DNA of 64,000 nt from an uncultured Spirochaetaceae bacterium (lineage in GTDB: Bacteria; Spirochaetota; Spirochaetia; SZUA-6; RPPD01). The notes below the pieces were generated by a model. It ran no database searches. It was given only the letters and a program-made list of their open reading frames with translations, and was not told the origin of the DNA. The translations under genes and the position numbers were made by a program. Position 1 is the first letter of the stretch. Each line of letters opens with the position of its first letter. The stretch covers positions 10,679-74,678 of the forward strand of contig CAZWYY010000009.1 of assembly GCA_964638895.1 (NCBI GenBank). Reading direction: 5' to 3'. Below, piece after piece: positions 2,547 through 34,483 of this stretch.

Positions 2547-4397
2547 TCAGGCCCCGCCCTTTTTAGTAAGATAGACCAGCAGCACCGCGATATCCGAGTT
2601 CCTCACCCCGGAGATGCGTGAGGCCTGGCCCACGGAAAGCGGCCTGATAACTTTCAACTTCTCCTTACTCTCCTTGGAAAGCCCCTGCATGGCGTCGTAA
2701 TTCAGGCCCCCCGGTATGGAAAGTTTTTCCATGCGCTTGAAGCGCTCCACCTGTTTCTGCTGGCGCCTGAGGTAGCCCTCGTACTTTATATCCAGCTCAA
2801 TGTGTGTGCGCAGGCGGCCGCCGTACTCCTGCACGGAGTCTTCCAGCGCGGCCAGCATGTCCATGGTAAAAGCCGGGTCTTTAAGCACGTAAGCAAAGGG
2901 CTTTCCCATGTACTTCTCCAGGGTGGGGAGCGCCGTAACGTCCTCCGCCCCAACCTTACGCTTCCGTAAAATCTCAGATATTTCATCCAGCTCTTTTAGT
3001 TTTTGCTCGAAGCGCCGCCGGGCCTCTTCGGTCTGCAGGCCCACCGCGTACCCCTTGCCGAACAGGCGGATATCGGCCGTATCGTGCCGCAGGCACAGCC
3101 TGTACTCTGCGCGCGAGGTGAACAGGCGGTAGGGCTCGCGCGTACCCAGGGTAACCAGGTCGTCAAGCATTACCCCGATATAGCTTTCGGCCCGCGAGAG
3201 CACCAGCGGCTTCTGGCGCCGCAGCTCCAGGGCTGCGTTGACGCCCGCCACAAGCCCCTGGGCCGCGGCCTCCTCATAACCGGAGGTGCCGTTGGTCTGG
3301 CCCGCGATAAACAGCCCGGCTAGGCGTTTTGTCTCCAGGCTGGGGTAAAGTTGGGTGGGGTCCAGGTAATCATACTCCACCGCGTACCCCGGCCGCATAA
3401 TCACCACGTGTTCCAATCCGGGTACGGTGCGCAGGAACTGTTCCTGCACCTGTTCGGGCAGGGAGGAGGAGATACCGTTCAGGTACATCTCTTCGGTGTC
3501 CAAGCCCTCAGGCTCCACAAAGATCTGATGCCGCCCGCGGTCGGGAAACCTCATGACCTTGTCCTCGATGGACGGGCAGTAACGCGGGCCTATGCCCACA
3601 ATCTTGCCGCCGTACAGCGGCGAGCTGCCGATGTTGTCGCGGATGATCTTGTGGGTCTTTTCGTTGGTATAGGTAACGTGGCAGGGCACACGCGGCCGCT
3701 CCACCCGTTCATAGGCAAAGGAAAAGGGCTGTGCCGCCTCATCACCCTGCTGCTCTTCCATTTTGGAAAAATCTAGGGAGCTCTTCAGCACCCGGGCCGG
3801 CGTGCCGGTCTTCAGCCTGCCCACGCTAAAGCCCATGCGGCGCAGGCTTCGGCCCAGACCCACGGCGGCCGGCTCCCCCAGTCGGCCGGAAGAGGCCTGG
3901 AAGGCGCCGATAAAGATTTTGGCCTCCATGAACGTGCCGGTGGTCAGCACCACCGCCTTGGCCGAAAACTTTCGCCCCCGTTCGGTGACCACCCCCCGCA
4001 CCTTTGTGCCTTTGGCATCAAGCAGCAGATCGATCACCGTGTCCTGGAACAGGAACAAGTGCTTTTCCAGCTCCAGGGTCTGTTTGGCCAAAAGCGCGTA
4101 GGCGGCCTTGTCGGCCTGGGCGCGCGGGGCCTGCACGGCCGGCCCTTTGCTGCGGTTTAATATCCTGAACTGGATCATGGTTTGGTCTATAAACCTGGCC
4201 ATCTGGCCGCCCAGGGCGTCGATCTCCCGCACCACATTACCCTTGGCCAGCCCGCCAATGGCGGGGTTGCAGGAAAGCCTGCCGATGCAATCCAGGCTTT
4301 GGGTGATAAAAAGCGTCTGTAATCCCAGGCGGGCCAGGGCCAGCCCGGCCTCTATGCCGGCATGTCCCCCGCCGATCACTATGGCGTCAAAATCCAT
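2547..4397 (-). CDS. mnmG: tRNA uridine-5-carboxymethylaminomethyl(34) synthesis enzyme MnmG (GidA)
   Basis: [63 protein letters not shown]; start set at ATG 4397. Confidence 0.97.
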
Positions 4398-4398
4398 G

Positions 4399-5775
4399 CT
4401 ATTTCCCCACACAGAAGCGGGAGAACATGGCCCGCAGAATCTCATCCGAGGTGACCTCGCCCGTGATATACCCCAGTGCGTCCAGCGCCTCCTTCAGGTC
4501 TACGGCCAAAAGGTCAAGCGAAACACCAAGGTCCAGCGCCTCACGTGCCCGCTTCAGGGCGGCCAGGCCCTGTTCCAAATACTGTTTCTGGTGCAGCGAG
4601 TCGATGACCGCGGCCTCGGACTCCCGCGGCCCCTCCCCGATCAGGCGCTTTTCGATCTCCCGTTCCAGCTCCCGCAGGCCCTGTCCGGACAGGGCGCTTA
4701 AGACCGCAAATCCGCGCGGCGGCCTGCCGCGGCCGATGTCGCACTTGTTCCAGACCCTGATAAGCCTTCCATCCCCGCGGTGCGCCGTGAAAAAGGCCTC
4801 GTCCTCGGCCGTAAGGCCCGCCGCCGCGTCCGTCAGGTAGACAACCAGGTCCGCGTTTTGGATCAGGTTCCCACTGCGGCGGATGCCCTCGGCCTCTACC
4901 GGGTGCTCGGCCGCGCGCAGCCCCGCGGTGTCGTACAGCCGCACCGGGATGCCGGCCACTGAGACGGCCCCCTCGATAAAATCGCGCGTGGTACCGTGAA
5001 ACTCGGACACGATCGAGCGGTCCTCGCGTAGCAGCAGGTTGAACAGGGTGGATTTACCCGAGTTGGTGCGGCCGGCCAGGGCCACGGTGACCCCTTCCTG
5101 GTAGATACGCCCGGCCCGGTAGGTGTCGAGCAGCGCCCGCATCTCACCGATAATCCCATCCAAGGGCCCCGGCGAAAGTACGCCGCGCTCATACTCCTCG
5201 TCCGGGTAGTCCAGGCGCACCTCCACCGCGCTTAAAAAATCCGTAAGGCGTGATTTTAAGCCGTCTATGATCTTCTCTATCCCGCCTGACAGCCTGTTCA
5301 GGGCCAGGCGGCGCGCCTTGTCCGAGCCGGCATGTATGATCTCGTTTACCGCCTCTGCCCGGGTGAGGTCCATCTTGCCGTTTAAAAACGCGCGCAGGGT
5401 ATACTCCCCCGGGTTGGCCTGCCGGAAGCCGGTTTGGTACAGTAGGGCCAGCGTCTTTTTTACGGCCGCCGGGCTGCCGTGGCAGAAGAGCTCCACCGCG
5501 TCCTCCCCGGTATAACTGTGGGGCGTGCGGTAGACGGCTGCCAGCACCTCGTCCACCGCCTGCTTGTCCCGCGGATCATACAGCACGCCCCTGGACAGGG
5601 AGTAGCCCTTTTTACGGGCCAGGGTTTCTTCCCCCTTGCCGCACTTAAACAATGCGTCTATTTTTTCTATGCAGCCCCCTCCCGACACCCTGATGACCGC
5701 GATAGCACTCTCGCCCCAGGGCGTGGCCAAGGCCGCGATCGGATCATGCGGGTTGAGGTCCTTGTGTTTGACCAT
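4399..5775 (-). CDS. mnmE: tRNA modification GTPase MnmE (TrmE)
   Basis: [58 protein letters not shown]-terminal FSRFCVGK; start at ATG 5775. Confidence 0.97.
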
Positions 5776-5914
5776 TCCTAAAAGATATAGAAAAAAGGCT
5801 TGGGATGCAATATCGTTGCCGGCCGCGCTCATATGGCGCGCCGGGTACACGGTTCTCACCACTAATGAAAAGTTATTGGAAAAACACGGCAAGATAGATG
5901 AAAATTAAAGCAAG

Positions 5915-7234
5915 ATGCTCATAAAAAATGTTGTGGCTCCCGCAATCATCCTATTTGCGTTTTTCTCCGTTTCATGCGCCGGCGGCTCCTCCAAAAAGCC
6001 ACCCGCTGTGCAAAACGGGAAAATAGATGTGAGCGGATGGGATTTTTACAATGACGGCTACATACCGCTTGACGGGAACTGGGAGTTTTACTGGAACCGG
6101 CTCCTGGGGCCCGGGGACTTTACACATAAAAACCCCGCGCTTACGCCTACGGGATTCTTTCCCGTACCGGGGGTGTGGAAGGATTACAACGGCGGGGGGA
6201 AATCATTCCCCCCGCATGGGTATGCCACCTATCGCCTGCTGATCAGGAACGCGGACACCAGGCTGTTGTTCGGCATGATCGTACCCGATACGGGAACGGC
6301 GGACAAGGTGTTTATAAACGGCAGGACGATAACGTCAAGCGGGATTGTGGGAACCTCAAGCAAGCGGAGTGAACCCCAATACAGAAACAGGTATGCCTGT
6401 TTCCGCACCGAACAGCCCGATATCGAGCTTATTGTGCAGGTTTCCAATTTTCATTACTGGAAAGGGGGTCTCTGGAATACCATCCTGTTGGGGGAAGCGC
6501 AGGCGGTTTCTGCGGAAGAAATGACAAGGGCCGCCACCGACCTGATCCTGATGGGCGCCGTGGCCGTGATCGCCATTTACAGCCTGACGCTGTTTATATT
6601 AATCGGAAAAGATCCGGCTTCGATCTATTTTTCCCTTTTCTGCTTATTGACCGTTTTTCGCATAGGCGCGACGGGGTATATATTATTCACGCATGTGTTT
6701 CCGAATTTTAACTGGGAGCTGTTGATTAAACTGGAGATCTGCCCGTTTTACCTGGGCGTCTTTCTTTTTACAAAATACATCTTTTGTATTTTCCCGGAGA
6801 TCATCCCTCAAATACTGGTCAAGGTCTCAACATACTATATGATTATTTTTATGCTCATCCTCATCGCCGCCCCCGCGGTATTATACAGCAACCTGATCCT
6901 GCCCACACAGGTTCTAGTGATCGGATTTACACTCACGGAGCTGATTTTACTGATAAAGGGGCTGCTGAAACAGATAAAAGGCACCTTCATCGTCTTATCC
7001 GGTCTTTTATTCCTTTTTTTGACCGTGGTAAACGACGTGTTGTTTTCAAACAAGGTCATTCAGACGGTGTATCTGTTTCCGTTGGGAGTGCTGGTTTTCT
7101 TTTTCTCCCAATCTTTTATTATTTCCCTGCGAACATTCAAGGAGCTGAAGTTTAATTCGCAGGTATTATTCAGTCCCGAAGGCAATAATATGTTTAATCC
7201 GGCTGATCGCCGACGCATGGAGATCAAAGATTGA
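5915..7234 (+). CDS. 7TM-DISM-type membrane sensor (extracellular beta-sandwich plus 7TM region) with no cytoplasmic output domain
   Basis: LDGNWEFYWNRLL, VPGVW, GYATYRL, VQVSNFHYWKGGLW followed by about seven hydrophobic segments and a short tail. Confidence 0.8.
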   Translation: MLIKNVVAPAIILFAFFSVSCAGGSSKKPPAVQNGKIDVSGWDFYNDGYIPLDGNWEFYWNRLLGPGDFTHKNPALTPTGFFPVPGVWKDYNGGGKSFPPHGYATYRLLIRNADTRLLFGMIVPDTGTADKVFINGRTITSSGIVGTSSKRSEPQYRNRYACFRTEQPDIELIVQVSNFHYWKGGLWNTILLGEAQAVSAEEMTRAATDLILMGAVAVIAIYSLTLFILIGKDPASIYFSLFCLLTVFRIGATGYILFTHVFPNFNWELLIKLEICPFYLGVFLFTKYIFCIFPEIIPQILVKVSTYYMIIFMLILIAAPAVLYSNLILPTQVLVIGFTLTELILLIKGLLKQIKGTFIVLSGLLFLFLTVVNDVLFSNKVIQTVYLFPLGVLVFFFSQSFIISLRTFKELKFNSQVLFSPEGNNMFNPADRRRMEIKD

Positions 7235-10200
7235 TGAAGACGGACAATAAAGACATATTAAAATCCTTTTTAAGCATATTTCTTCCGTTGACAGTCTCAC
7301 TGGTTACCGTTGTATTTCTTATTACATTAATTCTTTATTCCCTTGAGTTGGAGAATGAAAAGATTATGGTGGAAAATGAAGAGACGGATCACATAGAAAG
7401 GTTGATCACGATAGTTGGTTCCAGATTCAGGGTGATTGTTTCCGATCTGATCTTCCTGTCCGACCGGTATGAACTGAAGCATATGGTAAACCAAAGCAAA
7501 CAGGCACGGGAGCATTTACTGGACAGTTACGGCAAGTTTTTAGCCGGCATGGCGGTATACGACCGCATGGAATTTTTGGACCGCAATGGAATGGAGGTTT
7601 TTAGGATCGATTATAACAAAGGGAGTCCCTCTATTGTTCCCGGGGACCGGCTGCGCTTTGCGGGGGACCAATCCTATTTCACGCAAACCATGGGTCTTGA
7701 CCACGGTGAGATATATATCTCCCCGTTTGATTTAAAGAGGGACCACGGAAAGATCGAACATCCTTTAACACCCGTAATCAGGTTCGGAGCGCCGGTTTTC
7801 GATGCCGACGGTAAAAAAGCGGGGGTAATCATCCTTTCCTATTTGGGCGATGACCTGTTGTCCTCCCTGGACATAATTTCGTACAACACGATTTCACCGC
7901 AAATTTTGTTGTTGGATTCGGGCGGATACTATATCAAGGGACGCACCCCAGGGGAAGAATGGGGACAGGCGCTCGCAGACAGGAAGAATGACAGGTTCGG
8001 GAACACCTTCCCGGAAACTTGGGAAAACATCAAAAACGCGGACAGCGGACAGGTTACCGATAAGAACGGTCTGTTTACGTTTACCACCATATATCCGCTG
8101 ACGGTGCTCCGACAATCGTGGCTTGGGCCGGATCACGCGCCCGGGCCCGTGGTCAGGACAGGGGAAAAAGGCGAGTACTGGAAACTGATATCGTATATAA
8201 CACCCGACAGGCTTTCATACAAGGCAACAAGACTTTTCCACGTTCTCGGCATCCTGAACACGGTTATTTTCCTTATCCTGGTGGTGACCTCGGTGATCAT
8301 CACCCGTTCCAATATTGTCCGCAAGCTGTCCGAAGAATCGTTAAGACTAAGTAAAGAGCACTACCAGCGCCTGATCGACCTGGCGCCGGATATAATTTAT
8401 TATATCGATCCCGAGGGGAAGATAGTATTCATCAGTTCCGGGATTAAAAAATTGGGCTACAAGCCTGAAGAGCTTGCCGGACGCCCATTCTTTGATATTG
8501 TGCACGATGAAGATAAAGCAAAACTCGGCCACAACGGGGTTGAGCGGCGTACGGGAGACAGGGCCGTAAAGAATCTGGAAATCAGATTAATAAGCGGGTT
8601 GCACCCCCCCGCTAACGGCCGCCCCCACCAGTTGTATTTCAGGATTCGGGCAAGGGGAATATGGAATGTCCCGGACGAGGAGATGAAGCGGCGGGACAAG
8701 GTTTTCCTGGGCACGCTGGGCATCGCCCATGATATCACGGAACGGAGGAAGAACGAAGAGGAGCTCAGGGAAAGCAGGGCGAGTCTGTTCGCCCAGATAG
8801 AAAACAGCGACGCCGGAATCTGGTCGATCGGTAATGACTATATTATCCGGACAATCAATTCAAAGTTTCAAACCGATTTCAAACAGGCCTTCGGCAATTT
8901 GCTTGAGCCGGGATCGGATGTTTTAAAGAACCTTCCCGATGAGCTGCGCGCAGTCTGGAAGGAACGGTATGACAGGGCGCTTGGCGGCGAGAAATTTCAG
9001 GTGATCGACCACCTTGAATACCAGAGCGCGCCTGAATATACGGAGATGTCGTTCAATCCCATCAGCGTAAAGAACAAAATCATCGGGGTCTCCTGTTTCG
9101 CCCTTGATATTACCGAGATAAACAGGGCAAAAGAAACGGCGGAGCTCGCGAACAGGGCAAAGAGCGAGTTTTTGGCCAGGATGAGTCACGAAATCAGAAC
9201 ACCGCTTAACGCAATTGTGGGGTTGAACTACCTTTTAAAGCGCACTCAACTGTCCATAAAACAAAATGAGTACGTGACTAAAATAGAAAATGCGTCAAAA
9301 AGCCTGCTGAATATCATCAGTGATATCCTCGATTTCTCAAAAATAGAGGCGGGGAAATTAACCATAGAGAATATTCAGTTTAATTTGAATACCATAATTA
9401 AAAATATGGTGGATATCATCAAATACAAGGTGTATGAAAAAAAATTGGAGTTTGTCATTGATTACCAGAGGGAGGTGCCCAATATATTGATCGGCGATCC
9501 CATCAGGCTGGGCCAGATTCTTCTCAACCTGATCAATAACGCCGTCAAATTCACGGAGAAGGGTGAGATCCAATTGGTGATTTCGCTTTTAAGTAAAGCG
9601 CCGTCAACCGTTCAGATCCGTTTTGAGGTGAAAGACACGGGCATAGGGTTAAAGGAAAAAGAAATAAAAAACCTTTTTCTGGTGTTTTCCCAGGCCGATA
9701 CCTCTACAACCCGCAGGTATGGGGGGACCGGGCTGGGCCTGGCGATCTGTAAAAAATTAAGCGAGCTCTTGGGCGGGGAGATCGGCGTGGAAAGCACATA
9801 TAAACGGGGAAGCAATTTCTACGTCACCCTTCCGTTTACGGTTATTGAAAACACAGGAGAGACGTTACTCATTCCGGAGGAAATCAGGGGTATCGGCGCG
9901 CTGGTGCTGAAAAAGCAATCCGCTTTGTTTAAAATACTGCAGAGGTACCTGGAGGATTTTTCATTCAAGGTTGAATCCGTTTCCATAAGCAAGGACTTTT
10001 TGGCCCGGTTCAACAAAAACAAAGACGAGTACCGCCTGCTGATCCTCGATTTCGACCTGATGAGTAATGATCTCCTTGATATGTTCAAAGAGCATAAAAC
10101 CGGTACCGATATAAAAACAATCATCATCGGTTCGGCGGAAGATGAAGATATATTGGTCCGGTTCAAGCAAGATGGGATCATAGACGACGTACTGATCAAA

Positions 10201-11358
10201 CCCTTCAGTCAGTCTGATTTATTCAACAGCATTCTGGATTGCTGGGGTGAAATAGAAACGCTTAGCGAACCGGGGGACCTCATACCGGAACTCGGCGGCC
10301 TCGAGGACATCCGCGGGTCCAGGGTCCTTTTGGTTGAGGACAACGAGATAAACCGGCAGATAATACGGGAGATAGTGGAATCCGAAGGGATTTTTACGGA
10401 CAGCGCACATAACGGAAAAGAAGCGGTCCGCATTATTGAAAAAGTCAGTAATAAGTATGATATTATATTGATGGATATTCAGATGCCGGTAATGGACGGG
10501 TATGAGGCCACGCAGGTGCTGCGGAAACGCGGGGTAACAATACCGATTATAGCCTTGACCGCGGACGCGGCCACCCATGTAAAAGAAAAAGCATTTGCCG
10601 TGGGCATGAACGACTATATAACCAAACCGATCAATTTACAGGAACTTGTAAACGCGCTTATAAAATGGATAACACCGGGAAACAGGGAACACGAGCCGGC
10701 CCGCCGCCCGCTCTCCCCCGCCGCAGAGAAAAAAGCGGAAATAACAATAGCGGGACTGGACGCGGAGCAGGGCTTAAGGCGGATCGCTGGTAATAAGGAT
10801 TTGTACGGAAAGCTGTTACTCAAGTTCAGAGATAATAACCGTAATTTCATCAAGGACATAACGGGGCGTATCGACAAAAAGGAATTCGAAAAAGCGGAAA
10901 ACATGGCGCATGCCTTCAAGGGGGTGGCCGGCAACCTGGGGGCGGAAAACCTGTTCCAGGCCGCGCAGGTCCTTGATGAAGAATTGAAAAAAGCGAACCC
11001 GGATATTGATACCTGCCGTGAATTATTGGACCGGACGGCAAAGGAGCTGTCGATTGTGTTTGCCGGAATTGATGAGTATGAAAAAACAATGAGTATTGAC
11101 CGCAAGGACCAAGGCAAAGAAAAGGCGCATCTTTCAAGACAGGCCTTAAAATCACGTATGGAACAAATTATACGGAAACTGGAAGATTATGATACCGAGG
11201 CGGACCGGTTGTTCGCGGAAATAATTTCGGAGCCTTTATGCAGTGGATTCAAGGAAGAAATTGAACTGGTGGAAACCGGTTTAAGCAAATATGATTTCCA
11301 GACCGCCTTAAAAAATGTAAGGCGTATGTATGATACCTTATTTAAGGGGGATAAATAA
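7234..11358 (+). CDS. Hybrid sensor histidine kinase (Cache-like, 2 PAS, HisKA, HATPase, pseudo-REC, REC, Hpt)
   Basis: FLARMSHEIRTPLN, GDPIRLGQILLNLINNAVKFT, DTGIG, GGTGLGLAIC, ILMDIQMPVMDG, Hpt AHAFKGVAGNLGA; TGATG overlap with the upstream gene. Confidence 0.95.
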   Translation: MKTDNKDILKSFLSIFLPLTVSLVTVVFLITLILYSLELENEKIMVENEETDHIERLITIVGSRFRVIVSDLIFLSDRYELKHMVNQSKQAREHLLDSYGKFLAGMAVYDRMEFLDRNGMEVFRIDYNKGSPSIVPGDRLRFAGDQSYFTQTMGLDHGEIYISPFDLKRDHGKIEHPLTPVIRFGAPVFDADGKKAGVIILSYLGDDLLSSLDIISYNTISPQILLLDSGGYYIKGRTPGEEWGQALADRKNDRFGNTFPETWENIKNADSGQVTDKNGLFTFTTIYPLTVLRQSWLGPDHAPGPVVRTGEKGEYWKLISYITPDRLSYKATRLFHVLGILNTVIFLILVVTSVIITRSNIVRKLSEESLRLSKEHYQRLIDLAPDIIYYIDPEGKIVFISSGIKKLGYKPEELAGRPFFDIVHDEDKAKLGHNGVERRTGDRAVKNLEIRLISGLHPPANGRPHQLYFRIRARGIWNVPDEEMKRRDKVFLGTLGIAHDITERRKNEEELRESRASLFAQIENSDAGIWSIGNDYIIRTINSKFQTDFKQAFGNLLEPGSDVLKNLPDELRAVWKERYDRALGGEKFQVIDHLEYQSAPEYTEMSFNPISVKNKIIGVSCFALDITEINRAKETAELANRAKSEFLARMSHEIRTPLNAIVGLNYLLKRTQLSIKQNEYVTKIENASKSLLNIISDILDFSKIEAGKLTIENIQFNLNTIIKNMVDIIKYKVYEKKLEFVIDYQREVPNILIGDPIRLGQILLNLINNAVKFTEKGEIQLVISLLSKAPSTVQIRFEVKDTGIGLKEKEIKNLFLVFSQADTSTTRRYGGTGLGLAICKKLSELLGGEIGVESTYKRGSNFYVTLPFTVIENTGETLLIPEEIRGIGALVLKKQSALFKILQRYLEDFSFKVESVSISKDFLARFNKNKDEYRLLILDFDLMSNDLLDMFKEHKTGTDIKTIIIGSAEDEDILVRFKQDGIIDDVLIKPFSQSDLFNSILDCWGEIETLSEPGDLIPELGGLEDIRGSRVLLVEDNEINRQIIREIVESEGIFTDSAHNGKEAVRIIEKVSNKYDIILMDIQMPVMDGYEATQVLRKRGVTIPIIALTADAATHVKEKAFAVGMNDYITKPINLQELVNALIKWITPGNREHEPARRPLSPAAEKKAEITIAGLDAEQGLRRIAGNKDLYGKLLLKFRDNNRNFIKDITGRIDKKEFEKAENMAHAFKGVAGNLGAENLFQAAQVLDEELKKANPDIDTCRELLDRTAKELSIVFAGIDEYEKTMSIDRKDQGKEKAHLSRQALKSRMEQIIRKLEDYDTEADRLFAEIISEPLCSGFKEEIELVETGLSKYDFQTALKNVRRMYDTLFKGDK

Positions 11359-11739
11359 ATGGGGACAACACAAAAAAAAACAATCTTAATAGTGGATGAT
11401 ATGCCGGAGAACATAGATATCCTGCGGGGGCTCTTGGCCGACCAATTCAGCATCAAGGCGGCCACCAACGGCGAAACGGCTTTGAAAATAGCCGGAACCA
11501 TGCCGCCCCCGGACATGATTCTGCTGGACATCCTCATGCCCGGTACTGACGGATACCAGGTATGCAAAACACTCAAGGCCAATGCCAAAACAAAATCCAT
11601 ACCGGTGATTTTTCTGACTTCCAAGAACGAAATTAATGATAAAACCGAAGCGATCGACGCCGGCGCCGCCGATTACATCACAAAACCATATGACGCCGAC
11701 TATATCAAGCAGATTATCATGAAACACATTCGGAGATAA
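11359..11739 (+). CDS. Single-domain response regulator (REC)
   Basis: ILIVDD, ILLDILMPGTDG, VIFLT, DYITKP. Confidence 0.93.
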   Translation: MGTTQKKTILIVDDMPENIDILRGLLADQFSIKAATNGETALKIAGTMPPPDMILLDILMPGTDGYQVCKTLKANAKTKSIPVIFLTSKNEINDKTEAIDAGAADYITKPYDADYIKQIIMKHIRR

Positions 11740-11745
11740 CGGATA

Positions 11746-12891
11746 ATGGAGAACAATAAATCTTACATCCTGGTAGCGGACGATGAAGAAATTAGTAGAA
11801 ACATGATAATCGAGTTGTTGCATGAAATGGGGCTTGAGTCAAAATCGGCCGCGGGCGGCGAACAGGTGCTTGAGCTGTTGAAAGAATTCAGCTTTGACCT
11901 GATTCTCCTCGATATCAAGATGCCGGAACCGGACGGGTATAAGATATTGGAAATCCTTAAAAACGACAATAAATTGCGCTTAATTCCCGTGATTATGATC
12001 ACAATGGTGGATGAAACAAAGAGTGTCGTGGATTGTATAACACGCGGCGCGGAAGATTACCTGACCAAACCCTTTGAGCCCGCGATCCTAAAAGCAAGAA
12101 TCAAAAACAGCCTTGAGAAATACCGCTCTTTAAAACAGGAAAAAGTGTTGCTGGAAAAAACCCTGACCGGCAGTATTAAAATACTTACCGAATGCCTTTC
12201 TATGTTACGGCCCGCGGTCTTCGGACAATCGACACAGGTAAGCAGGATCTGTAGAAATCTGGCGAATTGGATGGGGCTTAAGGAAACTTGGCATGTTGAG
12301 ATCGCGGCGCTTTTTTCTCAACTGGGAAGCATCATCCTCTCTTCCCAATTACTGGACAGGATCTCTAAAAACGCGGTGCTTTCGGCGCAGGAACAAAAAA
12401 AGTATGGGAACTCCGTCCGCTTCGGATACAATCTGATCAATCAATTGCCCAGACTGGATAAGGTTGCTCAAATCATCCTGCATCAGCATGTACATTATTC
12501 TAGACTGACCTCCGCACCCGCCAGCCGGGAAAAACAAACCGTGCCCATGGAATCGTTTATCCTGAGCCTGGCGACCGATTTTAATCTTCTTACAGCCATG
12601 GGGCTTGATACGGCAACGGCCGTGAAAAAACTGCATACAAATAAAAACAAATATCATCCCCAGGTCCTGCAGGCCCTGGATGATATAATCGGGCATGAGG
12701 AGAATAAAGAGATCAAACCGTTAAACATAGCGGATATAAAACCCGGTATGATTTTTATGCAGGATGTCATCTCGGAAAACGGAACAAGGATAATCGCCAA
12801 GGGCAAGGAGGCTTCGGATATCGTGCTTATGCAACTCAATAATATCGCGAAGCAGTCGAACATAAAAGAACCCATATTGCTGCAGCTCTGA
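11746..12891 (+). CDS. Response regulator with degenerate HD-GYP-like output domain
   Basis: REC (ILVADD, LLDIKMP, YLTKPF), then EIAALFSQLG in place of HDIGK, no GYP motif, C-terminal IKPGMIFMQDVISENG..IIAKG domain. Confidence 0.85.
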   Translation: MENNKSYILVADDEEISRNMIIELLHEMGLESKSAAGGEQVLELLKEFSFDLILLDIKMPEPDGYKILEILKNDNKLRLIPVIMITMVDETKSVVDCITRGAEDYLTKPFEPAILKARIKNSLEKYRSLKQEKVLLEKTLTGSIKILTECLSMLRPAVFGQSTQVSRICRNLANWMGLKETWHVEIAALFSQLGSIILSSQLLDRISKNAVLSAQEQKKYGNSVRFGYNLINQLPRLDKVAQIILHQHVHYSRLTSAPASREKQTVPMESFILSLATDFNLLTAMGLDTATAVKKLHTNKNKYHPQVLQALDDIIGHEENKEIKPLNIADIKPGMIFMQDVISENGTRIIAKGKEASDIVLMQLNNIAKQSNIKEPILLQL

Positions 12892-12894
12892 ATC

Positions 12895-13216
12895 GTGCGG
12901 AAAAACTCAACCGCGTCCTCCCCCGTATAGCTGTGGGGCGCGCGGTAAACCGCGGCCAGCACCTCGTCTATCGCCTCCTTGTCCCGCGGATCATACAGCA
13001 TACCCATGGCAAGGGAGTAGCCCTTTTACGGGCCAACTTCTCCTCCTCCTTAAATAGCGCGTCTATCTTGTCTATACAGTCCTTCCCCGATACCCGGATG
13101 ACCGCGATGGCGCTCTCGCCTTACGGCGTAGCCGGGGCCGCGGTGGGATCATTCTGGTTCAGGCCTGTGTTTTTTACCATTCTTAGAAGATAAAAAAAAT
13201 GTCCGGGATGCACTAT
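12895..13216 (-). pseudogene. mnmE: Diverged, inactivated duplicate of the mnmE 5' end (about 95 codons) plus its promoter region
   Basis: From ATG 13180: [51 protein letters not shown], then a frameshift, then ...[35 protein letters not shown]; colinear with about 5480-5813. Confidence 0.92.
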
Positions 13217-13288
13217 TATTGACGGTTGCAGAAATTCCCCGCGTTTGCTATGTTTAGTACAGGCAGTAAACCGTAATATGGTAAAACA

Positions 13289-14185
13289 ATGAAAATATTG
13301 AAATTCAAAAAAATCGACGCGTTCGCCACGGAGTTTTCCGACGGAAACCCCGCGGGGTATATCAAACTTAATTCTCAATCAGAAATTAATGAAATTGAAA
13401 TGCAGAAGCTGGCAAAGGAATTAAAGGGGTATGTAAACGAGGTAGGATTTCTTTCTCAAAATCAGGGGGAATATTTTGATTTGAAATTCTATTCTTCGGA
13501 AAGAGAGGTCGATTTTTGCGGACACGCAACCGTCGCGATCATGTATGATCTGATAAAAGATGATATTAATCTTCAACAGAAGAGTATGTTAATGATACAA
13601 ACAAACCGGGGACTATTAAAGGTTGAAAACCGACTGGCCGCTGAAGATGCGGTTTTTATTATGTCTCCTGTTCCCTTTACGAAAACAGTTACCCCGGAAA
13701 CACAGGATATCGCCGACAATTTGGAAATCAAATCCGGGGAGATCGATTCACGTTATTCCATTTCAATAATCAATGCCGGATTAACGACTCTTTTAGTCCC
13801 CATAAAAAGCCTGGATTCAATACTGGGGATATCTCCGGATTTCCAAACCTTGAAAAAATTTTGTATTTCGAATGAGATTGATAACATTGAAGTGTTTACG
13901 ACTGATGTTTCAGACGCATCCCATGATTTCAGGGTTCGGGTGTTTGCTCCCACTTTCGGATACCTTGAAGACCCGGCCACCGGCTCCGGGAATTCGGCTT
14001 TTGGTTATTATCTATTAAATACGGGAAATTTCACGAAAAACACTATCATTATCGAACAAAATGACGATAGAAAACGTTTCAATATCGTAAAACTTCAAAA
14101 AACACATGATGATGAAGGCAATGAGAGGATATTGTTCGGCGGCGGGGCCATAAAGAGGATTGAAGGCGATTACTTTTTATATTAA
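13289..14185 (+). CDS. PhzF-family (DAP-epimerase-like) isomerase
   Basis: IDAFA..FSDGNPAG, NEVGF, EVDFCGHAT, RVFAPTFGYLEDPATGSGN. Confidence 0.92.
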   Translation: MKILKFKKIDAFATEFSDGNPAGYIKLNSQSEINEIEMQKLAKELKGYVNEVGFLSQNQGEYFDLKFYSSEREVDFCGHATVAIMYDLIKDDINLQQKSMLMIQTNRGLLKVENRLAAEDAVFIMSPVPFTKTVTPETQDIADNLEIKSGEIDSRYSISIINAGLTTLLVPIKSLDSILGISPDFQTLKKFCISNEIDNIEVFTTDVSDASHDFRVRVFAPTFGYLEDPATGSGNSAFGYYLLNTGNFTKNTIIIEQNDDRKRFNIVKLQKTHDDEGNERILFGGGAIKRIEGDYFLY

Positions 14186-14868
14186 TGATGATGAAACATC
14201 CAGCGCGAAAAACCACAATCGTTACGGTTCTCCTGTTTCTGCCCTTCTGCTTTTTTGCGCAAACTGCGTTTAATTCCGAGTATGTCACGGAAAAGTACAA
14301 ACTGTTTGCTGAAAGTAAGATAGGCTGCGCTTGCCTGGGCTGGTCGAAAACCGGGTTTATCGCCTTTTTAACAACGTCCATACCCTTTGAGCCCGTAGGT
14401 GGGGTCAACCTGGAACTGGTAGTTATGGACTGCGTTACCGACCGGGTGGTGACAACCTTCGTAATAAAAGCTCCCACCAAAGACACGCTTGAAGAAGGGC
14501 CACTCCGGGAGGCCGTAGCATTTTGTAACATCCAAAAGATACTACCGTATTTTTCTTTTATTGCCGAGTTCCCGCTTGAATATAAAGCGGATACATATGT
14601 TATACACGAGTTAACCCCGGAAGAAAAGGCGGAAACGGAAAAGCGGTATAAGCTTCAGGCCCGGTCATCCAAGCACTACAAACCTTTGGACATTGTCTGC
14701 CTTCCTGACGATATTATGGGGTATATCAAGAGTCCCTTTGAGGACAGGATCGCCGTTTGTTACTGGGTTCCCCCGCGGGACGGACCCACGGGCACCACTC
14801 TTGGCGGCGGCTATTACAGGGTCAGCGGCTGCCATATGAAAGTGGGATTCCGACGGGCAAATGACTGA
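14185..14868 (+). CDS. Hypothetical exported protein
   Basis: 227-aa ORF coupled to the PhzF gene; N-terminal signal-like hydrophobic stretch; no recognised domain. Confidence 0.6.
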   Translation: MMMKHPARKTTIVTVLLFLPFCFFAQTAFNSEYVTEKYKLFAESKIGCACLGWSKTGFIAFLTTSIPFEPVGGVNLELVVMDCVTDRVVTTFVIKAPTKDTLEEGPLREAVAFCNIQKILPYFSFIAEFPLEYKADTYVIHELTPEEKAETEKRYKLQARSSKHYKPLDIVCLPDDIMGYIKSPFEDRIAVCYWVPPRDGPTGTTLGGGYYRVSGCHMKVGFRRAND

Positions 14869-15221
14869 TCGGGGCCCTTGTGTGCACCCGGGGCCGTTGA
14901 CCGCGGCCGCGGCGGTGGTGAGGATGCCCGGTAAGCCGTGCGCGCCCGGGCGATGCCGGTTTTAATAAACAGCGACGGGAGGACCGCCCGTGAAAATTCA
15001 ACTCACTATGGCCACAAACCTGATTTTATAGTATAATCACAGCACGTTACACATTTCATACCAGACGCGCCGCGAGCTGATCATATCCTATACAAGGAGG
15101 GGGAGCCTGTTTCGGCGGCACCTCGCCCGGGAGAAGAGAAGGGCCGGTTATTTTTTACAGGTTATGAGACCCCGGATTGAAATTGACATATTACGCGTAT
15201 TCCGTATAAGCGTACATTAAT

Positions 15222-16127
15222 ATGATGAATAATAATATAAAAAGGATTGAATTTAAAACATCAAGAACAGCGGAGATGACCTGCGCGATCAGGGCAGCTT
15301 CATTTTATGAAAAGAAATTTCAATATAAGACTAATGACTATATTGCGATAAAGCTACTGCCTAAATTTATTTTATTATTCATAAAACTTGGAATGAAAAT
15401 TAGAGTAATCAGAAGAATCTATCAAAACAAAATGGCTCCTAATGGTATATACGAATATGTAATAGCACGCACAAAGTATATTGATTCTATTTTTAAAGAT
15501 GCTGTTTTAAATAAATTTGATCAAATACTGATTTTTGGTGCCGGTTTTGATTCGCGGGGGATAAGATTGCTTGATCCGAATTGTAAGACAAAGGTTTTTG
15601 AATTAGACGTTCCGATAACACAAAATGCAAAAATAAATCAATTAAAAAAAAGAAAAGTAAAAATAAATACCAACATAATATTTATTCCGATTGATTTTAA
15701 TAGAGAATCAATTGAAGATAAACTTATACAGAGTGGATTCGAAAAGAATAAAAAGTCTCTTTTTATTCTTGAGGGATTACTGATGTATTTAAGCCCTGAA
15801 GCCGTAGATTCTACATTTAAAATTATCAGCAAATTTGCAGGGTTAGAAAGTGGAATTGTATTTGATTATATATATTCCTCTGTGCTAAGAAGAGAAAATA
15901 TTTATTATGGAGAAAAAGATATTATTAATTTTGTAATAAAAGCAGGAGAAGGATGGACATTTGGAATTGAAAAAGGTAAGGTAGAGATATTTTTAAAGAA
16001 ATACAATTTAAAATTAATTAAAGATGCTGATGCCGGATATCTAGAGTCTAAGTATTTTAAGGATGAAAATCAAAAGCTTATCGGTAAAATTAATACAACT
16101 CATTGTATAGCATATGCAAAAAAATAG
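15222..16127 (+). CDS. SAM-dependent methyltransferase, LCM/TIGR00027-like
   Basis: SRTAEMTCAIRA, ARTKYID, QILIFGAGFDSR, VFELD, ILEGLLMYL; very AT-rich; TTGACA-16-TATAAG upstream (15183-15210). Confidence 0.9.
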   Translation: MMNNNIKRIEFKTSRTAEMTCAIRAASFYEKKFQYKTNDYIAIKLLPKFILLFIKLGMKIRVIRRIYQNKMAPNGIYEYVIARTKYIDSIFKDAVLNKFDQILIFGAGFDSRGIRLLDPNCKTKVFELDVPITQNAKINQLKKRKVKINTNIIFIPIDFNRESIEDKLIQSGFEKNKKSLFILEGLLMYLSPEAVDSTFKIISKFAGLESGIVFDYIYSSVLRRENIYYGEKDIINFVIKAGEGWTFGIEKGKVEIFLKKYNLKLIKDADAGYLESKYFKDENQKLIGKINTTHCIAYAKK

Positions 16128-16129
16128 TT

Positions 16130-16755
16130 ATGAATAAAATAGTATTAACGTGAATAAAACCGACAGGATCGCCTCATATCGGTAATTTATTCGGCATGAT
16201 AAAACCCGCGATTAAATTGATTGAATCATATCAGGCTTATTACTTCATAGCGGATTATCATGCGTTAAATGCCGTTAAAGATAAAAAGTGTTGGAAGAAT
16301 TAACGTATGAAGTCGCGGCCACATGGCTGGCCTGCGGATTGGATCCGGATAAAATATTGATTTATAAACAGTCCGATATACCTGAGGTATTCGAATTAAT
16401 GATCATATTGGCTGCTTTTACCTCCAAAGGGCTTATGAATCGGGCTCATGCGTATAAACAAATTGCGTATGATAATATTAAAAATAATCGCGATCAATAT
16501 GACGGTGTTAATATGGGGTTGTTTACATATCCGATATTAATGGCTGCCGATATACTTTTATTTGATACCGATGTGGTGACTGTCGGAAAAGATCAGATAC
16601 AGCATCTGGAAATGACCAATGATATCGCGGAATCGGTGAATAAGCATTACGGAAAAAATATATTTAAAATACCAAAGCCTTTATTAAATACCGAAACACA
16701 ATATATAAAGGGCCTTGACGGAAGGAAGATGAGTAAAAGCTAAAATAATATTCAG
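16130..16755 (+). pseudogene. trpS: Tryptophanyl-tRNA synthetase pseudogene
   Basis: MNKIVLT*IKPTGSPHIGN (TGA at a Gly position), frameshift in the A-run near 16285, YPILMAADILL, VGKDQIQHLE, GLDGRKMSKS then TAA where Tyr is expected; C-terminal domain missing. Confidence 0.9.
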
Positions 16756-17118
16756 ACTGCATTCGATATTGAAAATGATCTCAATGATATTATTAAAAGC
16801 GAATAATATTTGTTTTCAAATGGAGTTTAATAGTGGAACCGATTATACAATCAAAGCAAATAGATAATCTGGAAAATATCGCCTGCAAACTATATGAAAC
16901 CGAGCTTAAGCGGCATAATGACGCCGGCCATCCCTTGAATGTTCTCCTGTTTTTGGTTGATAACGGTTTTCATAAAAGAAAAAGGAGTTGAGACGCTGCC
17001 GGGATTGTGGAATGACAGAAAAACACAATACTATCCATTCGAAACAGGATTGAATGACACCACATATAATGGCGTAAACCGAAAATGCCGAAAAATACCG
17101 CTTAAAGGAAAACCGCAG

Positions 17119-18033
17119 ATGACACAAGCTGAAATAAACAATGCATTCGTTTATGGTGAAAAAGGCAGGATTATACCGGCAGACAACCTTTTCAGATTAA
17201 AAAATGAGATTGATCATTTTAAAAACAATCATGAGTTGAACGGTTTTCAGAAATGGATTGTTGATAACTTATACGGGTTTGATATTCCAAGGGTGGATTT
17301 TTCTATCAGGTCGATCATATTAATCGCGATTCCCCACCCGTTTTACGCGGAGGTTGAGTTTACCAGGAATAAAAAACCATATCATTGTCTTAGTCTGGTA
17401 ATGTCCGATTTTGATAAAACGGAAAATGAGTTACGCAGACATTCGGCGGCACAAAAATATAATGTAATTTCAGTGCACAATCTTCCGTTAAAGCGGCTGG
17501 CCGTGCAAAGCGGACTGGCCGTATACGGGCGTAACAATATTTGTTATATAGACGGAATGGCCAGTAATTTTTCCTTTGCCGCATATTACTCGGACATACC
17601 GTATACCGATGAGTGTTGGACTGATGTTACAATGGCCCCTCTATGCGCCAAATGCAGGGCCTGTATAAACAGCTGTCCTACCGGGGCAATACAAAAAACC
17701 AGGTTTTTAATAGATAATGAACGGTGTCTGTCTTACTGGAATGAAAGCGCCGAGCCGTTTCCGGAATGGATGCCGGAATCCGCGCACCATTGCATGTATG
17801 ATTGTTTAAAATGCCAGGTTAATTGTCCAATGAATAAGGATCAGATAAAAAAAACAGCAGGGCCCATACGCTTCAGTGAAGCGGAAACGGATATGTTGCT
17901 TTCCGGTTTGAATTATGAGCAGCAACCCGTTTCTTTAAGGAAAAAAGTGAAATACCTGGGATTACATCAATGGCCGGATGGAATAGCCAAAAACATGAAA
18001 ACACTGATTGAGACACGGGATAATCTGCGGTAA
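17119..18033 (+). CDS. Epoxyqueuosine reductase (QueG)-like 4Fe-4S dicluster protein
   Basis: LPLKRLAVQSGLAVYGRNNI, CAKCRACINSCPTGAI, RCLSY, DCLKCQVNCPMN; start at ATG 17119 after AAAGGA. Confidence 0.8.
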   Translation: MTQAEINNAFVYGEKGRIIPADNLFRLKNEIDHFKNNHELNGFQKWIVDNLYGFDIPRVDFSIRSIILIAIPHPFYAEVEFTRNKKPYHCLSLVMSDFDKTENELRRHSAAQKYNVISVHNLPLKRLAVQSGLAVYGRNNICYIDGMASNFSFAAYYSDIPYTDECWTDVTMAPLCAKCRACINSCPTGAIQKTRFLIDNERCLSYWNESAEPFPEWMPESAHHCMYDCLKCQVNCPMNKDQIKKTAGPIRFSEAETDMLLSGLNYEQQPVSLRKKVKYLGLHQWPDGIAKNMKTLIETRDNLR

Positions 18034-18038
18034 ATCCG

Positions 18039-18409
18039 ATGCATTTAGAAACATACATACGGGAGGCCGGTCACAAAGACGAAACCAGCCTGCGGCAAGG
18101 CAATCATGGCTTTGGGGCAGTGATTGTCAGGGATGATTGAAAGCATACAATACCGATTCCGCGAAACAAAGGCTGGAGTGGCATAAAGAAAATCGAAAGA
18201 CCTTCATTTTTCTTACCGCTGATCCCCTAGATTCAGCGTATAACCTGCCGCTGGCCCGGCTTAATATCGATAGTTCACAAGCAAAGATTGTTGAGAGATC
18301 AGACAAGCGAATAGTGTTTCGCTCAAGGAATTTTTATCCGAGACTTGAAGCGTGTAGAATATTCCATTATGACACAAGGTATATTTGTAAATATTATGTA
18401 ATATGTTAA
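18039..18409 (+). pseudogene. Internally deleted nucleoside-deaminase-family remnant
   Basis: MHLETYIREAGHKDETSLRQGNHGFGAVIVRDD* (deaminase N-terminus) abuts a C-terminal extension (IVFRSRNFYPRLEACRIFHYDTRYICK); catalytic HAE/PCxxC core absent. Confidence 0.6.
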
Positions 18410-18698
18410 TGCGCAGGTTTTATGTATTTGCTTATTTATTATCTGTATTTTGCATAAAGAATAAAATTAAACAGATTTTATCAGTTCTGAGTTTGTCAGT
18501 GAAGCATGCCGGGACGAGTTTTATTTGATATCGGCGATGATAATGCAGAAGGAAGTAAACAAACATTTAGATTTTTATAAATGGGCAAAATGAATACCGG
18601 AATTGGTTGTTGGAAAAAGCATACGATTTTATTTCAAAATATAACTGATTTTGATGAATTACGAAATGTTGTTTGCGCGCCGGCATCAGCTTATGAAC

Positions 18699-19112
18699 CT
18701 ACACCTCCAGAGCCGCCACGGCTTTTTGGTAATCCTCCCGTTTAAAAAAAAGAATAACGCCGTAACCTCCGTTTATACCGGCTATTCCATTGGATTTGCA
18801 AACAGTAACATCGGCCTGCGAAAGCTTCTTATAGATACCGGCCAAAGCCCCCGACTCATCATCACCCTGAACCAACAAAGCGAAGTAAGGACCATCCAAA
18901 TGCAGTCCCGCGTTTTTCGCTCCGCCGGTCATCTTCAGGCCGTCATCAGGAAAAAGAGTGAACAGGGTACGCATGGGCCCCAGGGGAACTGCCGCGAAAG
19001 CAAGCAGGTTGATCCCGAACCCGGCAACCTGGGAAAGCAGTTTATATGCTTCCCCGGCATGATTATCGATTGCAATTTGATAGTATTCAACACTTTTAAT
19101 ATCGAGCGCCAT
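18699..19112 (-). CDS. Tandem ACT-domain-like small protein
   Basis: AIDNHAGEAYKLLSQVAGFGINLLAF and GDDESGALAGIYKKLSQADVTV repeats; AAGGAG RBS before ATG 19112. Confidence 0.75.
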   Translation of the reverse strand: MALDIKSVEYYQIAIDNHAGEAYKLLSQVAGFGINLLAFAAVPLGPMRTLFTLFPDDGLKMTGGAKNAGLHLDGPYFALLVQGDDESGALAGIYKKLSQADVTVCKSNGIAGINGGYGVILFFKREDYQKAVAALEV

Positions 19113-19278
19113 GGATTCTCCTTTTAAGTTTAAGTTCATTTTTTATTCAACATATAACAAATCATGACATGATGGCAAGAATTATTGCCGGATACACTTC
19201 CATTCAAGTGGACAGCTTAGTAATCATCTTGTATTATAATTGAAAACCTTTGCATCTTTTGTTTGAAAAGAGTCAATT

Positions 19279-19776
19279 ATGAATGAAACGGAAAAAGTAA
19301 ATCCGATACTGGATTATAAGAATATAGTGCGGCGACTAAAGGAGACAATAGGATGCACCGCGGGCGAAGCAATGGACTTTCGGCCCAAAGATGATTACTG
19401 GACCATCAGGGAGCATATCGCCCATATTATGGATTGTGAAATCTTCGGATTCACCAGATACCGGAAATCAATCGCAGAACCTAATACCACGGTTGAAGGA
19501 TTTAATCAGGAACACTGGCAAGCGAACCTTGATTATCGGATTATGGATATTTCAAAAGCAATGCGGATAATCGAAACACTTAACTACATAACGACCGATC
19601 ATCTTTTAACAATCACGAGCAAAAATTGGGACTCCTATTACATCGAACATCCCAAAAGAGGCAATGAGAATCTTTCTAAATTGATAAACAGAAGAATATC
19701 GCATATCAAAGAGCATATCGGATATATAAACAGAAATAAAGCTCTGTTTGATGATAAGGGACGGTTTGTATCGTGA
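19279..19776 (+). CDS. DinB/YfiT-family protein
   Basis: RP..DYWTIREHIAHIMDCE, HPKRG, HIKEHIGYI. Confidence 0.85.
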   Translation: MNETEKVNPILDYKNIVRRLKETIGCTAGEAMDFRPKDDYWTIREHIAHIMDCEIFGFTRYRKSIAEPNTTVEGFNQEHWQANLDYRIMDISKAMRIIETLNYITTDHLLTITSKNWDSYYIEHPKRGNENLSKLINRRISHIKEHIGYINRNKALFDDKGRFVS

Positions 19777-20360
19777 ACTTAGGCATTTTGGCCTCACATA
19801 ACGGAACAAACGCCCAGGCGGTAATAGACGCATTTAAACAGGGAAAAACAAAGGCAAAGGTTACCGTCATCATAAGCAACAATTCCAACGCCGGGGTGCT
19901 TGAAAGGGCTGAAAAGGAACACATACCTCATTATCATTTAAGCCGGCAAACGCACCCTGATCCAAACGTATTAGATGAAATAATCCTTAATACATTGATA
20001 AAACATAATGTTGAGCTGGTATTATTGGCCGGGTATATGAAAAAGCTGGGAAGTAAAACCCTGGCATACTACAAGAACAGAATAATAAACATACATCCGG
20101 CGCTCCTGCCTAAATACGGCGGCAAGGGTATGTACGGCTTGAACGTACACAAAGCGGTCATCAAAAACAAGGAAAAAGAAACGGGCATAACCATTCATAT
20201 TGTTGACGGGGAATACGATCATGGAAAAATAATTAATCAAATGAGGATTCCCATAAAGAGCGATGAAACACCCGAAAGCCTGCAGAAAAGGGTGCTGGAA
20301 TACGAACATACATATCTAGTTGAGACATTAAACAAATTACAAAATGTTTTTAAATTATAA
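19773..20360 (+). CDS. purN: Phosphoribosylglycinamide formyltransferase
   Basis: ILASHNGTNAQA, LAGYMKKL, INIHPALLPKYGG.G, ETGITIH.VD.EYDHG.II. Confidence 0.9.
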   Translation: MNLGILASHNGTNAQAVIDAFKQGKTKAKVTVIISNNSNAGVLERAEKEHIPHYHLSRQTHPDPNVLDEIILNTLIKHNVELVLLAGYMKKLGSKTLAYYKNRIINIHPALLPKYGGKGMYGLNVHKAVIKNKEKETGITIHIVDGEYDHGKIINQMRIPIKSDETPESLQKRVLEYEHTYLVETLNKLQNVFKL

Positions 20361-20379
20361 ATTATAATGGAGGTATAAA

Positions 20380-21024
20380 ATGTCTCAATTCGCTAAACCA
20401 GCCGGCTTATTTGGAAGAGTCCTTGCAAAAGGGATGGCTTGGGGGCATAGAGATTTTTATAAAAATACTGCTCAAGTATTAGATTTGAAAACAGATGATA
20501 AATATCTTGAAGTAGGATTCGGGTCCGGTATTTTTATAAATAAATATGTTTCGCATGTATCATTAATAGCAGGAATTGATTATTCAGCAGATATGGTTGG
20601 ATTGGCTTGTGAAATAAATAAGGCGCTTGTTCAATCAGGAAAGACAGATCTCAGACATGGAGAAGTATCATCCTTACCATGGGATGATAACACATTCTCT
20701 GTTGTCGTAGCAATTGAGACTTTTTTTTTCTGGCCTGAACCGGATAAAGCATTAAGAGAAATATTACGTGTATTAATACCCGGCGGCAGGTTGGTTATTG
20801 AAATGGCATACAATAAAGAAGATGGATTGGATCATACTAAAGATATAAAAAAAATGAATTTAAAATTATATAGTTCCGAGGAAATAACAAGCTTGTTAAT
20901 AAATTGTGGATTTATTAATATAAGTATAAAATACTATAAAGGATTTTGGTTGCCATTTAAAGGATATGTGGTTCCTAAGGGAATGATAGTAAAAGCAATA
21001 AGGGGTAAGGGCCTAAATACTTGA
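20380..21024 (+). CDS. Class I SAM-dependent methyltransferase
   Basis: LEVGFGSG, GIDYSADM, LPWDDNTFS, LREILRVLIPGGRL. Confidence 0.9.
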   Translation: MSQFAKPAGLFGRVLAKGMAWGHRDFYKNTAQVLDLKTDDKYLEVGFGSGIFINKYVSHVSLIAGIDYSADMVGLACEINKALVQSGKTDLRHGEVSSLPWDDNTFSVVVAIETFFFWPEPDKALREILRVLIPGGRLVIEMAYNKEDGLDHTKDIKKMNLKLYSSEEITSLLINCGFINISIKYYKGFWLPFKGYVVPKGMIVKAIRGKGLNT

Positions 21025-21134
21025 AGATTCGGTTGCGATTTAAATACCTAGCCCGGTGCGCAATGATAATCTTAAATATATAAATCAAAAAGATTATTAC
21101 ACTATACAAATTATGAAATAGAAGATTCCCAAAA

Positions 21135-21437: not shown

Positions 21438-21485
21438 AAATAAATTGCATCCCCCGGAACTACCCCAATATATTGAGGCGCAAGT

Positions 21486-24209: not shown

Positions 24210-24258
24210 AAACTTGGTGGCAGAATTATTTCTTGTAATGTAAAAAGGAGGATGTTTC

Positions 24259-34479: not shown

Positions 34480-34483
34480 GCGG

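Follow-up and report, generated by a model that had tools for sequence, protein, structure and literature searches.

Within a window of 64,000 nucleotides (the whole stretch of DNA analyzed, positions 10679-74678 of the 77.6-kb contig CAZWYY010000009.1, here C9, of an uncultured salt-marsh spirochaete, here genome G000), the 5' end of the tRNA-modification gene mnmE is present twice, as two diverged direct copies between which lies a four-gene two-component signaling operon. One of these copies (copy A) opens the working gene, while the other (copy B) is a truncated pseudogene fragment lying just beyond the last gene of the operon. Comparison of the two indicates that both diverged as functional genes, under purifying selection and in separate lineages, before the event that brought them together. 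In its anatomy the locus agrees less well with a mobile island than with recombination at a variable hotspot, and we give about an even chance to the explanation that copy A and the operon entered together with DNA from a congeneric species, through one homologous and one illegitimate joining. Coordinates below are window positions unless another genome is named; the assembly of the genome, in 107 contigs, is 93% complete with an estimated contamination of 4.9%. The salt-marsh origin is read from the named sources of homologues and from the sequencing runs in which the DNA occurs.

The repeated mnmE start and the operon it encloses

The intact mnmE gene (4399-5775, minus strand) begins with an ATG at 5775 and encodes a protein of 458 residues with the Pfam domains TrmE_N, MMR_HSR1, and MnmE_helical. 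Across all 458 residues this protein is 83% identical to the mnmE product of G002, the nearest species among the three congeners used for comparison (G001, G002, and G003). That the start of this gene recurs as a diverged direct repeat had been proposed from an earlier reading of the DNA made without database searches (the sequence-only reading), and the alignments confirm it. A repeat search returned two collinear direct blocks, 5482-5612/12897-13027 (86% identity) and 5644-5794/13049-13199 (77%), which merge in a gapped local alignment into a single pairing of 5478-5822 with 12894-13225; a BLAST search against the whole genome aligns the two copies over 341 columns at 78.0% identity (E 4e-70) and finds no third copy of the mnmE start. 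The longest identical run, found midway along the repeat, is 21 nucleotides. Copy A (5478-5822, minus strand) is composed of about 47 bp of upstream DNA and codons 1-99 of the working gene, its frame open and continuous with the remainder of mnmE. Copy B (12894-13225, also on the minus strand) is composed of 49 bp of upstream DNA (13177-13225) and codons 1-99 (13176-12894), and is truncated at codon 99.

Only two lesions disable copy B, and both had been recognized in the sequence-only reading and are upheld by the alignment: a TGG>TAA change at codon 20 and a 1-bp deletion inside a run of A at codons 55-56. A short in-frame deletion had been counted with them. This is present as a gap of 9 bp relative to copy A, but because the same three codons are absent from the outgroup genes of G003 and G001 and from P0004, natural variation in length is a more probable source of it than decay. 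The suggestion that the repeat also carries the mnmE promoter found no support, as only about 47 bp upstream of the gene is common to both copies and a sigma-70 scan around copies A and B, including the spacer beside copy A, found no promoter-like site. That spacer (5823-5914), 92 bp between copy A and the divergent module, shows no similarity, within the limits of the alignments, to the spacer to the right of copy B or to G002.

The operon itself is tightly packed, lies upstream of mnmE, and is transcribed divergently from it, with all of its genes on the plus strand. The first encodes a stand-alone 7TMR-DISM membrane receptor (5915-7234; 439 residues, Pfam PF07695) and overlaps the start of the second by 4 nucleotides. 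The second encodes a hybrid histidine kinase (7231-11358; 1375 residues) composed, according to Pfam, of a sensor domain followed by PAS, HisKA, HATPase, receiver, and Hpt domains. There follow a single-domain response regulator (11359-11739; 126 residues, Pfam Response_reg) and a full-length response regulator with an HD_5 output domain of the HD-GYP type (11746-12891; 381 residues, also from Pfam). No orthologue of the module occurs in the congeners or in other relatives. Among 92 genomes of the order the best identity to the receptor protein is 35%, and a search of a species-level genome collection yields 28 loci at 26-35% identity. Likewise, nothing in the three congeners matches the sensor half of the kinase at E<=1e-10, and the HD_5 regulator has no match at E<=1e-30 in 20 relatives, its best non-self identity in a protein database search being 54%. 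Within the order, most of the receptor's relatives belong to open frames of 500-1345 residues, that is, fused to output domains. The G+C content of the module, 42-52%, is inside the usual range of the genome (median 51%; whole genome 50.4%).

The junction between the operon and copy B is abrupt. The stop codon of the HD_5 regulator (TGA, 12889-12891) is followed by 2 nucleotides (12892-12893, as given by the sequence and the limit of the alignment), after which homology to the mnmE start sets in at 12894, so that the truncation point does lie within a few bases of the regulator's stop, as had been noticed earlier; the actual position of the join may be anywhere within 12892-12900. Eleven homologues of 377-396 residues each cover 96-99% of the regulator, which is thus full length and was not truncated by the joint. 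A terminator scan of the sequence after this gene found none.

Divergence of the two copies and the reality of the junctions

The differences between copies A and B are not evenly distributed over codon positions. Across 93 codons, 13 fall on first, 11 on second, and 29 on third positions, corresponding to 29.5 synonymous and 21.5 non-synonymous differences, a synonymous excess that had been reported from the sequence alone. By Nei-Gojobori estimates of substitutions per synonymous (dS) and per non-synonymous (dN) site, the two copies are separated by a dS of 0.69 and a dN of 0.11, with a dN/dS of 0.16 (bootstrap 0.08-0.30). Comparisons with the nearest species give values of the same kind: a dS of 0.79, a dN of 0.128, and a dN/dS of 0.16 for copy A, and 0.60, 0.135, and 0.23, respectively, for copy B. 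For the rest of mnmE (codons 98-458), G000 and G002 differ by a dS of 0.70 and a dN of 0.094 (dN/dS 0.13), and for mnmG by 0.67 and 0.078 (dN/dS 0.12). This match between the A-B values and those between species shows that the two copies come from different genomes, and, as the sequence-only reading had supposed, both were under purifying selection in separate lineages. In a three-way comparison in which 203 of 281 sites are identical and all three sequences differ at 7, the private sites of A, B, and G002 number 23, 23, and 25. Copy B thus shows no excess of private changes, and as it also carries only two disabling lesions, it worked as a gene in its own lineage through nearly all of its divergence and was disabled only recently.

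The physical reality of this arrangement is attested by independently built contigs from four marsh runs that were placed on 4800-14300, among them runs X1 and X2 from 2019 (X1 is possibly the source sample) and X4 from 2025. One X1 contig of 4124 bp covers 4800-7693 with zero mismatches. The joint between the regulator and copy B is bridged by contigs of X1 (12807-13277) and X4 (12863-13106), and an X2 contig (12900-13888) joins copy B to the PhzF gene that follows. With 0-1 mismatches, the junctions are spanned by contigs of both years, 2019 and 2025, and the stop codon in copy B is covered by X1 and X2 contigs with zero mismatches. Because contigs of several runs bridge the joints, and because a chimera would not hold a broken copy, a chimeric assembly is very unlikely. 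No alternative joints were found in the contigs of the four runs; contigs drop rare variants, so this result does not address rare excision.

Some matches of another kind were also encountered in these contigs. Short loose-end matches at 5033-5065, 5540, 9181-9212, and 10469-10499 resemble conserved words from other organisms. At the second of these positions, a contig present in both X1 and X2 fits the window rightwards from 5540 (mnmE codons up to about 78) and is unlike it leftwards. Either another organism has contributed a short match to a conserved word, or an mnmE start resembling copy A may exist in a second arrangement.

Downstream of mnmE lie mnmG (2547-4445) and then rsmG (1871-2539). 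The G+C content of mnmE and mnmG together (2547-5775) is 60-65%, no lower than the genome's 95th percentile, and their dS to G002, about 0.7, is well under that of neighboring core genes (1.1-2.1). Downstream of rsmG, positions 453-1832 encode a protein of 459 residues that combines TPR repeats with a nuclease-like domain (Mrr_cat/NA-iREase1) at its C-terminus; the C-terminal part of this protein is 87-95% identical in all three congeners.

Direction of the proposed replacement and competing explanations

Gene content upstream of mnmE differs widely among the congeners, as the comparison called for in the sequence-only reading revealed. In G001 and G003, about 200 bp separate mnmE from a homologue of 24259-24729, which is followed by a long block collinear with 24739-38019. 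The same site in G002 is occupied by about 5 kb containing a DUF2314 gene, a remnant of the window's gene at 14185-14868, a DinB_2 gene, a PAS kinase, and a small open reading frame (ORF), while in G000 it is occupied by 18.5 kb (5776-24258) that are absent from two of the three congeners and partly common to G002. Beyond copy B, the rest of this variable stretch (13226-24258, delimited from Pfam and composition) includes a PhzF-like gene (13289-14185), the gene at 14185-14868, which is without known function, a DinB_2 gene (19279-19776), and an MCP gene (22476-24209), together with Pfam matches to an LCM methyltransferase, a decayed trpS-like gene, Fer4_16, a formyltransferase, and a methyltransferase. 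The remnant in G002 (G002:C8, L038 14274-14364) is a 91-bp piece from the 3' end of gene 14185-14868, 85% identical at the nucleotide level, and it abuts DinB_2; in the window the same two genes are separated by 4.4 kb (14869-19278). To judge from these arrangements, the region upstream of mnmE is a variable hotspot in the genus, with segment boundaries that fall repeatedly inside genes.

Much of this stretch is also unusual in composition. Between 15000 and 23500 the G+C content is 31-43%, compared with 50.4% for the genome, and is below the 5th percentile of 1-kb windows. This low-G+C region holds the LCM, Fer4_16, DinB_2, formyltransferase, methyltransferase, and MCP genes as well as several ORFs without an assigned family. 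The decayed gene within it, a second trpS-like gene (16130-16960; 31-34% G+C), is in pieces in two frames with internal stops; its open piece, 16288-16743, corresponds to positions 64-202 of the 292 in tRNA-synt_1b, and its identity to the copy that the genome has on contig C88 is 43%.

Which of the two starts is foreign is suggested mainly by this synteny. Because the flank on the side of copy B shares with G002 the arrangement of gene 14185-14868 and DinB_2, that arrangement would by parsimony be ancestral to the clade of G000 and G002, making copy B the resident start and copy A, together with the module, the incoming one; the synteny mildly favors B as native. Sites polarized by an outgroup point in the same direction, with 8 shared by B and G002, 3 by A and G002, and 2 by A and B.

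On the explanation to which we give even odds, the donor would be a related congeneric species, about 20% diverged at mnmE, in which the mnmE start adjoins the four-gene two-component operon. Its DNA would have recombined with the resident chromosome through a homologous event inside mnmE and one illegitimate joining, with no part played by a site-specific recombinase. Two routes could lead to this outcome. The fragment may have been circularized and integrated by a single crossover (insertion-duplication), or, by homology-facilitated illegitimate recombination, a linear fragment may have been anchored further 3' in mnmE while an illegitimate joining at codon 99 of the resident gene took up its other end. 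By either route, the working mnmE would now read from the incoming start, copy A, and copy B, the resident start together with the region upstream of it, would have been cut at codon 99, moved 7.4 kb away, and begun to decay. Both the direction, with A incoming, and the route of recombination are our inferences. A direct repeat around a non-homologous insert, one copy of which is truncated exactly where the insert ends, is the product of a single crossover by a circularized fragment with partial homology, and the linear route leaves the same one.

Several observations weigh against this account. Copies A and B, the G002 gene, and P0002 (a protein from a fourth lineage) are 76-80% identical to one another over the first 97 residues, an equidistant star from which phylogeny gives no direction, and the 8/3/2 count of shared sites is made up mostly of saturated third positions. 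No mosaic breakpoint was found within mnmE; sliding identity to G002 shows no step, and an apparent excess of changes private to G000 in the first 200 codons, seen in a three-taxon pattern of amino acids, was set aside when the outgroup-polarized count gave no significance (Fisher p 0.68). Searches of a species-level genome collection, of metagenome contigs, and of a protein database turned up no donor or other parental sequence and no genome with an empty site: the closest mnmE sequences are 83-84% identical, and a scan of metagenome contigs with mnmE gave at least 80 loci, those listed being at 34-50% identity and representing widely conserved peptides. The nearest relatives of the module's proteins, at 35% for the receptor and 54% for the regulator, are likewise distant. 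Moreover, homologous exchange across about 20% divergence is inefficient, and the model leaves unexplained the coincidence by which the join falls only 2 nucleotides beyond a stop codon that is intact. Of the earlier proposal that the module came with a foreign mnmE start and that the other start was displaced and decayed, the separate lineages of the two copies and the recent displacement of B are retained, whereas the identity of the foreign copy is not established by four equidistant sequences.

The structure is symmetrical, and the explanation that survives next best, with perhaps one chance in several, reverses the direction. Copy A and the module would then be resident, and copy B would be the broken end of a foreign segment running from 13226 to about 24258, with no replacement of a gene start at all; this segment, from a congener with the ancestral mnmE-PhzF synteny, would have been anchored by homology in the conserved block to its right and joined illegitimately at its left end after the stop codon of the regulator. 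The star formed by A, B, and G002 is compatible with this, the right-hand segment is itself a patchwork of low-G+C, decaying DNA, and the module, at 42-52% G+C, is inside the usual range of the genome (median 51%). This direction requires additional steps, however, in that the arrangement of gene 14185-14868 and DinB_2 must first be lost to the module in the lineage of G000 and later be reacquired from a relative. The weak 8/3/2 site count and the lower dS between B and G002 (0.60, compared with 0.79 for A) also point the opposite way, and the module occurs in no congener.

A further explanation, which we regard as improbable, is that the locus is the remnant of an integrase-borne island that targeted the 5' part of mnmE and supplied a new start, its recombinase and transfer genes having later been deleted up to the stop codon of the regulator. 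Direct repeats of the target gene flanking the insert, a gene kept intact by incoming sequence, and an old start left behind are hallmarks of the dusA islands as these are described in PMC4482086. No recombinase or fragment of one was found on the contig, in agreement with the sequence-only reading of the window. Pfam scans of 63 window ORFs (28 + 35, from 64 ORFs of at least 70 residues, the regulator ORF at 11359-11739 replacing two overlapping spurious ones), with six small unmatched ORFs rescanned at a looser threshold, found no integrase, resolvase, or transposase. A six-frame search for the tyrosine and serine recombinase families PF00589 and PF00239 found nothing on C9, DDE transposase families not being included in the six-frame search; in the whole genome PF00589 was found on contigs C2 and C86 only and PF00239 nowhere. 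The ends of the repeat contain no tRNA-like sequence or short conserved core, the longest identical run of 21 nucleotides being mid-repeat, and the cargo is an ordinary two-component operon.

An integrase-targeted site that is used recurrently is not supported, since among 401 genomes sampled across the phylum, 391 of which contain TrmE_N, a truncated extra copy is present in one alone, G000 itself. Nor was a truncated mnmE start found in 40 relatives once a scaffold gap in G001 and contig ends in G007 were set aside. The G001 candidate for a second remnant (G001:C9, L040 about 4215-4315) proved to be an assembly artifact, a scaffold gap of 100 N with overlapping mnmE ends, and the mnmE fragments of G007 were dropped as they sit at contig ends. 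In G259 the two TrmE_N matches are on separate contigs. In G367, two inverted TrmE_N matches with equal scores (G367:C3:71636-71995 and 88106-88465), each in a full-length open frame of 475 residues, lie 16 kb apart on one contig; either mnmE is truly present there as an inverted duplicate, or the assembly may be at fault.

The remaining alternative, that the mnmE start was duplicated locally within this lineage and its spare copy then drifted, or else that the metagenome assembly is chimeric, has next to nothing to recommend it beyond the 107 contigs and 4.9% estimated contamination of the assembly: duplication plus drift is rejected by the uneven 13/11/29 distribution over codon positions (an even one had been sought as evidence for it), by an upper bootstrap bound on dN/dS of 0.30 that is far under the expectation for a copy neutral since duplication, and by the lack of excess private changes in copy B (23, compared with 23 and 25), and a chimera, the other objection that had been anticipated, by its inability to account for a broken copy and by the contigs of the 2019 and 2025 runs that bridge the junctions, the stop codon of copy B included, with 0-1 mismatches.

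Meaning of the scar and relation to known systems

The decay of copy B has a consequence for the fate of the module. If the module were deleted by a crossover between B and A at any point 3' of codon 20, mnmE would receive the stop codon or frameshift of B, so that the decay of B disfavors loss of the module. A bolder idea, which we consider a long shot, is that the mnmE start serves as a built-in homology arm and that the 7.4-kb unit is a recombinase-free "knock-in cassette" passed between congeneric spirochaetes by transformation and single crossover at an important gene. If so, once the displaced start had decayed, loss of the cassette by recombination between the repeats would inactivate mnmE, and the cargo would be fixed in a manner resembling an addiction module. 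The locus is a natural case, and a clean one, of accessory genes gained beside a core gene without the machinery of mobile elements; its host is an uncultured spirochaete of salt marshes. The scar can be dated, as the displaced start still shows the selection of its earlier life, and scars of this type could help to recognize hotspots at which genes were gained without a recombinase, as distinct from islands that have merely lost their integrase.

Replacement of the 5' end of a gene is known from integrative elements, of which SXT/R391 at prfC is one case. The sequence-only reading had contrasted the swap at mnmE with islands that use the 3' end of the same gene and regarded it as a different mode, which overstates the difference, for the dusA islands already do so. 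These islands, which have DAI integrases, typically replace the 5' end of the target with sequence of their own, and the original 5' end is left as a remnant (as described in PMC4482086). At mnmE, too, the incoming sequence would form the new 5' end (copy A) and the old end (copy B) would be the remnant, 7.4 kb upstream. Unlike the dusA islands, for which a dedicated tyrosine integrase, semi-conserved att repeats of 21 bp, and excision are described in the same source, the mnmE locus has no integrase and a repeat of 332-345 bp at 78% identity. It also shows no sign of excision in the contigs of the four runs and does not recur at the site across many genomes. Mobilizable islands of the SGI1 type share the target gene, trmE being mnmE, but are reported to use its 3' end together with an integrase (PMC8409611), whereas here the 5' end is involved (codons 1-99 and 47 bp), no integrase is present on C9, and the host is a spirochaete.

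A different parallel is provided by the successive displacement of effectors of the type VI secretion system and of Rhs C-terminal ends, for which homology-facilitated illegitimate recombination is proposed as the mechanism in PMC5361080. As in those cases, an incoming module would be anchored in a conserved gene and the displaced resident part left as an orphan, which in those systems lies downstream. In the effector and Rhs systems, variable 3' toxin ends are displaced and immunity genes are selected, while here a housekeeping gene for tRNA modification has its 5' start displaced, and no use of the remnant is evident.

Insertion-duplication and homology-facilitated illegitimate recombination have been described in Acinetobacter, Streptococcus pneumoniae, Pseudomonas stutzeri, and Escherichia coli, and in these, as proposed here, non-homologous DNA is acquired through a homologous and an illegitimate event without a recombinase. 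In E. coli, according to PMC3240628, 56 of 60 recombinants obtained with a substrate of one-sided homology carried a partial duplication of the homologous locus, attributed to a circular molecule and a single crossover. The single-crossover form thus duplicates part of the locus, over 109-950 bp in the 14 sequenced clones of that study and over about 340 bp at mnmE. Those were laboratory constructs, whereas the event at mnmE is natural and would have joined species about 20% diverged, and the copies of the repeat were never identical. The signs by which such events are recognized, a flanking direct duplication truncated at the end of the insert and copies that derive from two genomes, are nonetheless found here. 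The mnmE locus does not represent a new mechanism, for replacement of a 5' end and displacement of part of a gene by homologous and illegitimate recombination are both documented.

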